From IMG/VR virus record IMGVR_UViG_2534681774_000013, positions 1-5,545 of that record: DNA of 5,545 nucleotides. One strand, 5' to 3'. Made by a program: the position numbers. How positions within the stretch are numbered: position 1 is the first letter of the stretch; each line of letters begins with the position of its first letter. This DNA is from a virus. Taxonomy: Duplodnaviria; Heunggongvirae; Uroviricota; Caudoviricetes. Positions 3,001 to 5,545 of this stretch are shown here, in pieces.

Positions 3001-5545
3001 AAAGGAAGTAAAGAATGAATAAAGCATTTGAACGATGGGTCCACCAGCGTTACGGCAATCGCTATGACCTGACGCGAGATGTTGACGGCTTCTACTGTCG
3101 TGAAGTTGTGAAGCGAATGTTTGAAGTGTGGTGCCACTGCCGTGGATGAAAATTTTATGAGGTTGGCATGCAGACAATCATCTATCAGATAACCCCCAGC
3201 AAATGGTGTACGGAGAGAGTCCTCATTGCATCAACAGGGCTAAAGCCTGGCACCATTGAGCGGGCAAGAAGAAAGTCATGGATGCAGGGAAAAGAATACC
3301 GCCATTACGCTGTAGAAGGTGATCCGGGGCACTACAGTGAATGCCTGTACAACATCGAAGAAATTATGCGATGGATCGAAAACCAGAAACAACCAGGTGC
3401 CAAAAATGCAAGTTCCGGTTAACCTGTTAATGCTCCTGGACGTCTGGGAGGTTTAATGAGTAACGCATCATACCCGACAGGCGTTGAAAACCATGGAGGA
3501 TCACTCCGTATATGGTTTCACTATAATGGCAAACGTGTCAGAGAAAACCTCGGTGTTCCTGACACAGCCAAAAACCGGAAGATCGCTGGTGAACTTCGCA
3601 CTTCCGTTTGTTTTGCAATCAGAATGGGGAGTTTCGACTACGCCGCGCAGTTCCCTAATTCCCCTAACCTGAAACACTTTGGTCTGGGAAAAAGAGAGAT
3701 AACCGTTAAGGCACTTTCGGAAAAATGGTTGGACCTTAAGAAAATTGAGATTTGTGCGAATGCACTTAATCGTTACCAGTCAGTAATTAAAAACATGTTG
3801 CCTATGTTGGGTGAGAAAAAACTGGTTTCATCCATAACAAAAGAGGATTTACTTTTCGCAAGGAGAGATTTGTTGACCGGTTACCAAAAGCTTTCTAATG
3901 GAAAGATTTCTTCCATAAAAGGGCGCTCAGTGGTCACAGTAAACTACTATATGACAACCATAGCTGGAATGTTTCAATTTGCAACAGATAATGGTTATAC
4001 CTCAGGAAACCCATTTAACGGTCTGGCACCCTTAAAAAAGTCCAAGGTAAAACCAGATCCTCTCACCCGTGACGAATTTATTCGTTTTATTGAAGCTTGC
4101 CGTCATCAACAAACAAAAAACCTGTGGATTCTCGCTGTATACACGGGTATTCGTCACGGGGAGCTGGTATCGCTGGCATGGGAAGATATAGATCTTAAAG
4201 CAAGGACTATAACCATCCGTAGGAATTATACAAAACTTGGCGAATTCACTCCACCAAAAACCGATGCTGGCACCGGAAGGACAATTCATCTGGTTCAACC
4301 AGCTATTGATGCTCTTAAAAGTCAGGCGGAAATGACCATGCTTGGAAAGCAACATTCTGTAGAGGTAAAGCAGAGGGAATATGGGAGAAGTACTGTGCAT
4401 AAATGCACTTTTGTTTTTAGTCCTCAGGTAATAAAACAGCGGCAGTTTTCCGGACCGCACTATAAGGTTGACTCCATCAGGGAGTCATGGACAAGTATCT
4501 TAAAACGCGCAGGTCTGAGACACAGAAAATCGTACCAATCCAGGCATACTTATGCATGCTGGTCACTTGCCGCTGGAGCTAATCCTAGTTTTATCGCAAG
4601 CCAGATGGGCCACACAAACGCACAAATGGTATTCAATGTTTACGGAGCATGGATGAAAGACAACAATCACGAACAGATAGAACTCCTTAACAAAAGACTA
4701 TCTGAAAGTGTCCCATGTATGCCCCATAAGAAAGCTGGGTAAAATAAAAACTTGCAAAATCAATTAGTTTACCCTTAATCCCTGTCACGTTACGCGCGTG
4801 GCAGAGGCGTTACGGGTTGCTGAAACCGCAACGGACAGACGGCGGTCATCGACTGTTCAACGATGCCGATATTGACCGTATCCGCGAGATCAAACGCTGG
4901 ATCGACAACGGCGTGCAGGTCAGCAAAGTTAAAATGCTGCTCAGTAATGAAAATGTTGATGTGCAGAACGGCTGGCGCGATCAGCAAGAAACATTACTGA
5001 CCTACCTGCAAAGCGGCAATCTGCATAGCCTGCGAACGTGGATCAAAGAGCGCGGTCAGGATTACCCGTAAGCGCATCATTTAAACCGTCTTTCGCCTCC
5101 CTTTCCTGTTTCCGATACTAATGTCCATTTTCGCAGTAAAAGGACATTTAAGATGAATGCACGAAAAGCGGTACTGGCAGATAATCCAGAATTGATCCTG
5201 CGTGTGCTACAGCTGAGATTTGACGAGTCACTGTCGTACCCGCGCATTTCTGCGCAGACTGGTGTCAGCAAAACCGCCATTTTTTCTCTGGTGAGGCGAT
5301 TTCACCAGGTATTCACTGACTGGCCTCTTTCCGGTGAATATTCCTGCGGGCAACTGGCCCGGGCTCTTTTCCCGGGGCGATACCCTTCAGCCCCGACCGT
5401 GACTCAGCCTGTGAAAGCAGAGAAACCCCGCCGGAACCGATTTTCACCGGAGTTTAAATGGAGACTGGTTCAGCAAACTCTTTTACCCGGTGCCTGTGTC
5501 GCACAAATAGCTCGAGAGAATGGAATTAACGATAACCTGCTCTTT

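Follow-up and report, generated by a model that had tools for sequence, protein, structure and literature searches.

An IS679 end adjoins the remnant of a prophage-split mlrA gene on a short draft contig

The window (the whole 5,545-nt stretch of DNA analyzed here) carries an internal piece of mlrA (yehV) held between two mobile elements. The reading that we consider highly probable is that the insertion sequence IS679 transposed into codon 112 of an mlrA gene previously split at codon 17 by a lambdoid prophage resembling VT1-Sakai and YYZ-2008. MlrA is a MerR-type activator of csgD and curli and a regulator of biofilm formation. All of the components (IS679, the mlrA att site, and the phage module) are known, and neither a new kind of element nor a new mechanism is involved; the case is an ordinary second insertion, of local importance, in a gene already known as a prophage target. 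The window is identical to an entire draft contig, AIHE01000028.1 of assembly GCA_000250295.2, which breaks off within IS679 at element position 478 (window 5545). The multiplicity of IS679 accounts for this end, since the draft assembly, we infer, broke at the repeat.

The mlrA remnant and the IS679 end

The features on the IS side of the window are the following:

4781-5067, plus strand: mlrA remnant running from codon 17 into codon 112 (first two bases) of the 243-codon gene; it retains part of the MerR HTH domain and the beginning of the MlrA helical domain (aligned without gaps to MG1655 mlrA, b2127; Pfam; NCBIfam)
5060-5067, no strand: target site GATTACCC, predicted 8-bp duplication; the 8 bp directly left of the IS terminus, a prediction that assumes simple transposition
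5068-5545, plus strand: left 478 nt of IS679 (IS66 family; full element 2,704 bp), identical at 478 of 478 positions to L001 4003-4480
5068-5092, plus strand: left terminal inverted repeat (IRL), beginning 5′-GTAAGCG, compared with the reverse complement of the reference right end
5153-5545, plus strand: tnpA, first 131 of 216 codons (IS66-family accessory protein, HTH), from NCBIfam IS66_access_TnpA, Pfam HTH_Tnp_1, and the RefSeq tnpA label on identical DNA

Positions 4781-5067 align to the 243 codons of MG1655 b2127 without gaps and with 5 mismatches. Both Pfam MerR_1 and MlrA_helical are matched in the remnant, which keeps 32 residues of the MlrA helical domain. The NCBIfam MlrA equivalog is matched over profile positions 16-112 of 243 with 212.6 bits; the full-length cut-off is 417, which a fragment would not be expected to reach. 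The remnant thus falls short of the full 243-codon ORF with its MerR HTH, MlrA helical, and MlrA_C parts: phage DNA stands in place of codons 1-16, and after codon 112 the IS takes the place of most of MlrA_helical and the whole of MlrA_C.

An earlier, sequence-only reading of this DNA had followed the mlrA frame to a Pro codon at 5066-5068 and then to a TAA formed by GTAAGCG. This is what the translation gives: the mlrA-frame ORF occupies 4817-5071, with CCG (Pro) at 5066-5068 and the stop codon at 5069-5071, and the junction reads ...GGT CAG GAT TAC CC|G TAA GCG CAT.... In the mlrA genes of K-12, O26:H11, and O111:H2 12A, the site reads GATTACCC|CGCCCAGAC (A-Q-T-L), whereas in the window it reads GATTACCC|GTAAGCG; past the junction, the three genes continue as CGCCCAGACACTC (A-Q-T-L-T) and the window as GTAAGCGCATCA. 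The G at 5068 is an IS base, the native base being C, which places the junction between 5067 and 5068, that is, between the second and third bases of mlrA codon 112. The IS-derived G happens to preserve Pro codon 112, and the IS then provides the stop. Colinearity of the window with intact mlrA after 5068 was considered and rejected on alignment to the three genes, all of which diverge from the window after 5067. The interruption itself had therefore been correctly recognized, while its position, put at about codon 110, is now refined to Pro112 of 243, with the G at 5068 assigned to the IS.

The proposal that the interrupting element belongs to the IS66 family is supported by the identity of all 478 nt to a complete, RefSeq-labelled IS679 copy. 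This reference copy, from E. coli O111:H2 12A (2,704 bp, L001 4003-6706), has the ends GTAAGCG...CGCTTAC and encodes TnpA (216 aa), TnpB (115 aa), and TnpC, a protein of 523 aa labelled “IS66-like element IS679 family transposase”; the window's own tnpB and tnpC would lie past the contig end. All three products of the reference copy exceed the NCBIfam IS66 equivalog cut-offs. Its TnpB scores 128.9 bits against IS66_TnpB (cut-off 50), and its TnpC scores 474.4 bits against transpos_IS66 (cut-off 180) and also matches Pfam DDE_Tnp_IS66. When window positions 4700-5545 were compared by megablast with 5,426 complete E. coli genomes, dozens of copies were matched from window positions 5066-5068 through 5545 at 98 to 100% identity, all of them annotated as IS66-like element accessory protein TnpA. 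In the O111:H2 12A genome, a query including the IS679 left end found 12 places. An ATG ORF starting at 5153 on the plus strand runs off the window end, and its partial product reaches 181.9 bits with NCBIfam IS66_access_TnpA, above the cut-off of 150, and matches Pfam HTH_Tnp_1 with an E value of 5e-12, in agreement with the HTH ORF that had been read from this position on the same strand. A promoter scan of 4700-5545 found no promoters.

Judged by its sequence, the element at 5068-5545 is the previously described IS66-family member IS679, a name that rests on the RefSeq product label and the published length of the element. IS679 was reportedly first described on the EPEC plasmid pB171, in work by Han and co-workers (2001, J Bacteriol). 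Known IS679 copies encode a TnpA of 216 aa that has an additional N-terminal HTH, a TnpB, and a DDE-type TnpC, and some copies at other loci are flanked by 8-bp target duplications. The window resembles them in its GTAAGCG terminus and HTH tnpA, and its visible part shows no difference from them; the sole novelty among the 5,426 complete E. coli genomes is the insertion site, mlrA nt 335.

The terminal repeat was compared with the reverse-complemented right end of the reference copy. Positions 1 to 7 are identical, after which the match is imperfect (~15 of 25 positions, including AACCGT); the right end CGCTTAC is known here from reference copies and lies outside the window. GTAAGCG at 5068-5074 is the sole copy of this heptamer in the window. 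The heptamer alone is not significant, as at least one copy occurred in 82 of 200 shuffles, and we rejected it as stand-alone evidence for an IS. What makes the terminus significant is that the 100% match of 478 nt opens at this very heptamer.

The prophage junction and the order of the two insertions

On the other side of the mlrA remnant, the window contains the int-proximal end of a prophage:

3168-3422, plus strand: xis, prophage excisionase (homologous CDS annotated xisR, excisionase family, in O26:H11 and O111:H2 genomes; Pfam DUF1233 recorded for the product)
3456-4742, plus strand: prophage tyrosine integrase gene, 428 aa (Pfam Arm-DNA-bind_2, E 2e-24; Phage_integrase, E 5e-18; ~95% nucleotide identity to the VT1-Sakai and YYZ-2008 int regions)
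4743-4779, no strand: phage-derived DNA from the int stop codon to the att core, not similar to K-12 mlrA or to the DNA upstream of that gene and identical in prophage-bearing genomes
4780-4800, no strand: 21-bp att core, the int-proximal prophage/host junction, equal to the YYZ-2008 “direct repeat due to prophage insertion” (L019 4575-4595)

Contiguous identity to K-12 mlrA starts at 4781, in codon 17, and coincides with the att core. A tyrosine integrase and an excisionase beside a core repeat within mlrA mark a lambdoid prophage at the mlrA/yehV att site. The int-xis region shows ~95% identity to the ends of VT1-Sakai and YYZ-2008; its identity to phage PhiR5_1 is 98.9%. The prophage thus shares this level of int-xis identity and the same 21-bp core repeat with the mlrA/yehV prophages of STEC (the Stx1 prophage VT1-Sakai/Sp15, CP-933V, and YYZ-2008). 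The arrangement differs from theirs in that a second mobile element is also present in the distal mlrA remnant; the comparison covers the int-proximal early region contained in the window, and any stx genes would lie outside it. An identical int-proximal prophage/mlrA junction was found in 458 of the 5,426 complete E. coli genomes, and the same prophage end is shared across serotypes O157:H7, O55:H7, O111:H2, and O26:H11.

With the att junction and int at codon 17 and the IS terminus at codon 112, the remnant is indeed flanked by a prophage and an IS, as had been suggested. The description of the two elements as nested does not hold: the IS is located 287 bp outside the prophage, in what is left of the host gene, and the elements lie side by side. 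True nesting involving the IS66 family is seen in strain CU42ET-1, where ISEc8 lies inside the tnpA of the same element, IS679, whereas the IS in the window lies in host DNA beside a prophage. The locus is best annotated as an mlrA pseudogene remnant between a prophage att junction and an IS679 end, rather than as a small MerR-like gene followed by an orphan HTH gene.

We agree with the earlier view that the order of the insertions is not deducible from the window; comparison with other genomes favors the prophage having come first. E. coli O111:H2 12A is 100% identical to the window over 1100-5067 (3,968 nt), and its distal mlrA is uninterrupted, with no IS in the gene. The IS junction, whether the left one or the predicted right one, occurs in 0 of the 5,426 complete genomes, compared to 458 for the prophage/mlrA junction. 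On these sequence comparisons, it is likely that the prophage was acquired first and that IS679 insertion was a recent, strain-specific event. The argument is one of parsimony, and independent acquisition of the prophage is conceivable because the same prophage end occurs in several serotypes. The opposite order, in which IS679 entered mlrA first and the prophage later used an intact att site at codon 17, draws on this same repeated use of the site in several unrelated serotypes and on the state of the att core (4780-4800): the IS, 267 bp farther downstream, leaves it intact, and a later integration could still have taken place there. We consider this order quite unlikely, since the prophage junction is found without the IS in 458 complete genomes, the IS junction is found in none of them, with or without the prophage, and the closest genome, 12A, has the prophage and lacks an IS in mlrA.

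Several further observations concern the prophage and its annotation. In prophage-bearing genomes, RefSeq lists a 233-aa “MlrA” CDS that starts at an ATT within phage DNA (window 4763 onward; L002 3021-3722; L014 6663-7364); this chimeric CDS is probably not a functional gene. Within the prophage, the ORFs at 1413-1691 and ~1657-1929 overlap in different frames and look like a single gene broken by a frameshift near 1680; in O111:H2 12A, the homologue carries the annotation “frameshifted”. Window positions 1-1099 (an Ea22-like region) differ from the prophage ends of O111:H2 12A and O55:H7 RM12579, which are otherwise 100% identical to the window, and match other mlrA prophages at ~98 to 99%. 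This divergence is the usual lambdoid mosaicism.

Simple insertion, rearrangement, or assembly artifact

The left mlrA/IS junction was absent from the 5,426 complete E. coli genomes, the GTDB species representatives, and the JGI metagenome contigs. A synthetic right junction, composed of the IS679 right end, GATTACCC, and distal mlrA, was absent from the 5,426 complete genomes and the GTDB representatives. The distal 131 aa of MlrA, used as the query in a homologue search, matched assorted fragments, none beginning at codon 112 or carrying an IS-derived prefix.

When the truncated 84-aa MlrA′ was looked up, the source contig came back together with nine unrelated contigs from metagenomes or run assemblies (L004-L012). 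These nine share the prophage/mlrA junction of the window and stop no more than 2 nt from the IS insertion site. They were rejected as IS junctions, as native mlrA sequence continues to their ends (...ACCCC, ...ACCCCG, or ...ACCCCGC). The coincidence of these ends most likely arose because looking up an exact product selects for it, and does not mark a biological breakpoint.

The behavior of IS679 was sampled at five complete copies located at other loci. Three of the five are flanked by 8-bp target duplications: TAATTTTC (L016), TTTTATAC (L018), and CATTATTT, the third duplication being given as (C)ATTATTT(A) (L018). The other two have none (L001, 3995-4002 compared with 6707-6714; L015, 2994-3001 compared with 5706-5713), and the L001 copy, that of strain 12A, adjoins a truncated C40 peptidase phage tail gene. 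This suggests that IS679-associated deletion or recombination is common in these genomes, and because two of the five copies are without a duplication, a simple insertion is not guaranteed in mlrA either.

Given this sample, we consider it probable that IS679 entered mlrA by simple insertion, which would have duplicated GATTACCC; the second copy would lie past the contig end, as would the IS right end and distal mlrA. The 5067/5068 boundary could instead be an IS679 end left by an IS-mediated rearrangement, either an adjacent deletion or a recombination or inversion between IS679 copies, in which case distal mlrA, perhaps with yohO and yehW-osmF, would have been deleted or moved and would not lie beyond this IS. 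The two copies without target duplication, one of them (L001) next to the truncated tail gene, are what such events would leave, the ~12 IS679 left-end places in a related genome provide ample substrate for recombination, and the right junction was found in no collection searched. That absence is to be expected, however, since the left junction is likewise absent from every searchable collection; moreover, 8-bp duplications mark three of the five sampled copies as simple insertions, and the window shows no sign of a deletion. We regard a rearrangement as unlikely here. A different objection would be that the mlrA/IS join is a chimera of the draft assembly and that mlrA is really uninterrupted. 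The contig is short, it ends in a multi-copy repeat, and its junction is seen in no other genome, all of which would suit an artifact. Against this, mlrA and the IS end share no sequence in the junction region that could have misled the assembler, and the switch occurs at the very base with which the IS terminal repeat opens, as in real transposition, a coincidence with a random chance of ~1 in 2,700. Because the switch falls on this base, a chimera is extremely improbable.

Consequences for mlrA and the contig end

Insertion of a prophage in mlrA leads to the loss of mlrA expression, curli, and biofilm formation (PMC3874044), and prophage induction may bring back some mlrA properties (PMC5931665). 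If IS679 insertion followed prophage integration, as we favor, the locus would have developed as follows. Site-specific integration of the lambdoid prophage at codon 17 would have split mlrA and removed its promoter, start codon, and first 16 codons, and MlrA would already have been silenced. IS679 would later have inserted by means of TnpC, in a simple DDE cut-and-paste or copy-paste reaction, duplicating GATTACCC; the 3′ 60% of mlrA would then resume ~2.2 kb past the contig end. The IS would truncate MlrA before its helical and C-terminal domains.

In prophage-only strains, precise excision would give back an intact mlrA and with it curli and biofilm formation. Here, precise excision of the prophage would leave mlrA::IS679 and not a working gene; the loss of MlrA would therefore no longer be reversible by prophage loss, which bears on curli and biofilm phenotypes in pathogenic E. 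coli. A more far-reaching interpretation is that IS679 was selected for locking mlrA off, or that the IS end marks a deletion of distal mlrA together with the yehW-osmF transporter genes. We view this as distinctly doubtful; if either version were true, the strain would offer a case from nature in which a second mobile element has permanently fixed a regulatory switch gated by a prophage.

A look-up of the cut 131-aa TnpA returned the source contig and no other contig ending at the same IS position. In E. coli CU42ET-1, an ISEc8 copy lies within IS679 tnpA at position 475 and is flanked by the 8-bp duplication ACCTGCTC (L017 3440-3480 and 5910-5935). This site is 3 nt before the point at which the contig ends (position 478). 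The IS679 copy in the window reads through it (CTCTTT) and is thus not interrupted there. Another IS679 copy of the source genome, if interrupted by ISEc8, might account for the assembly break.
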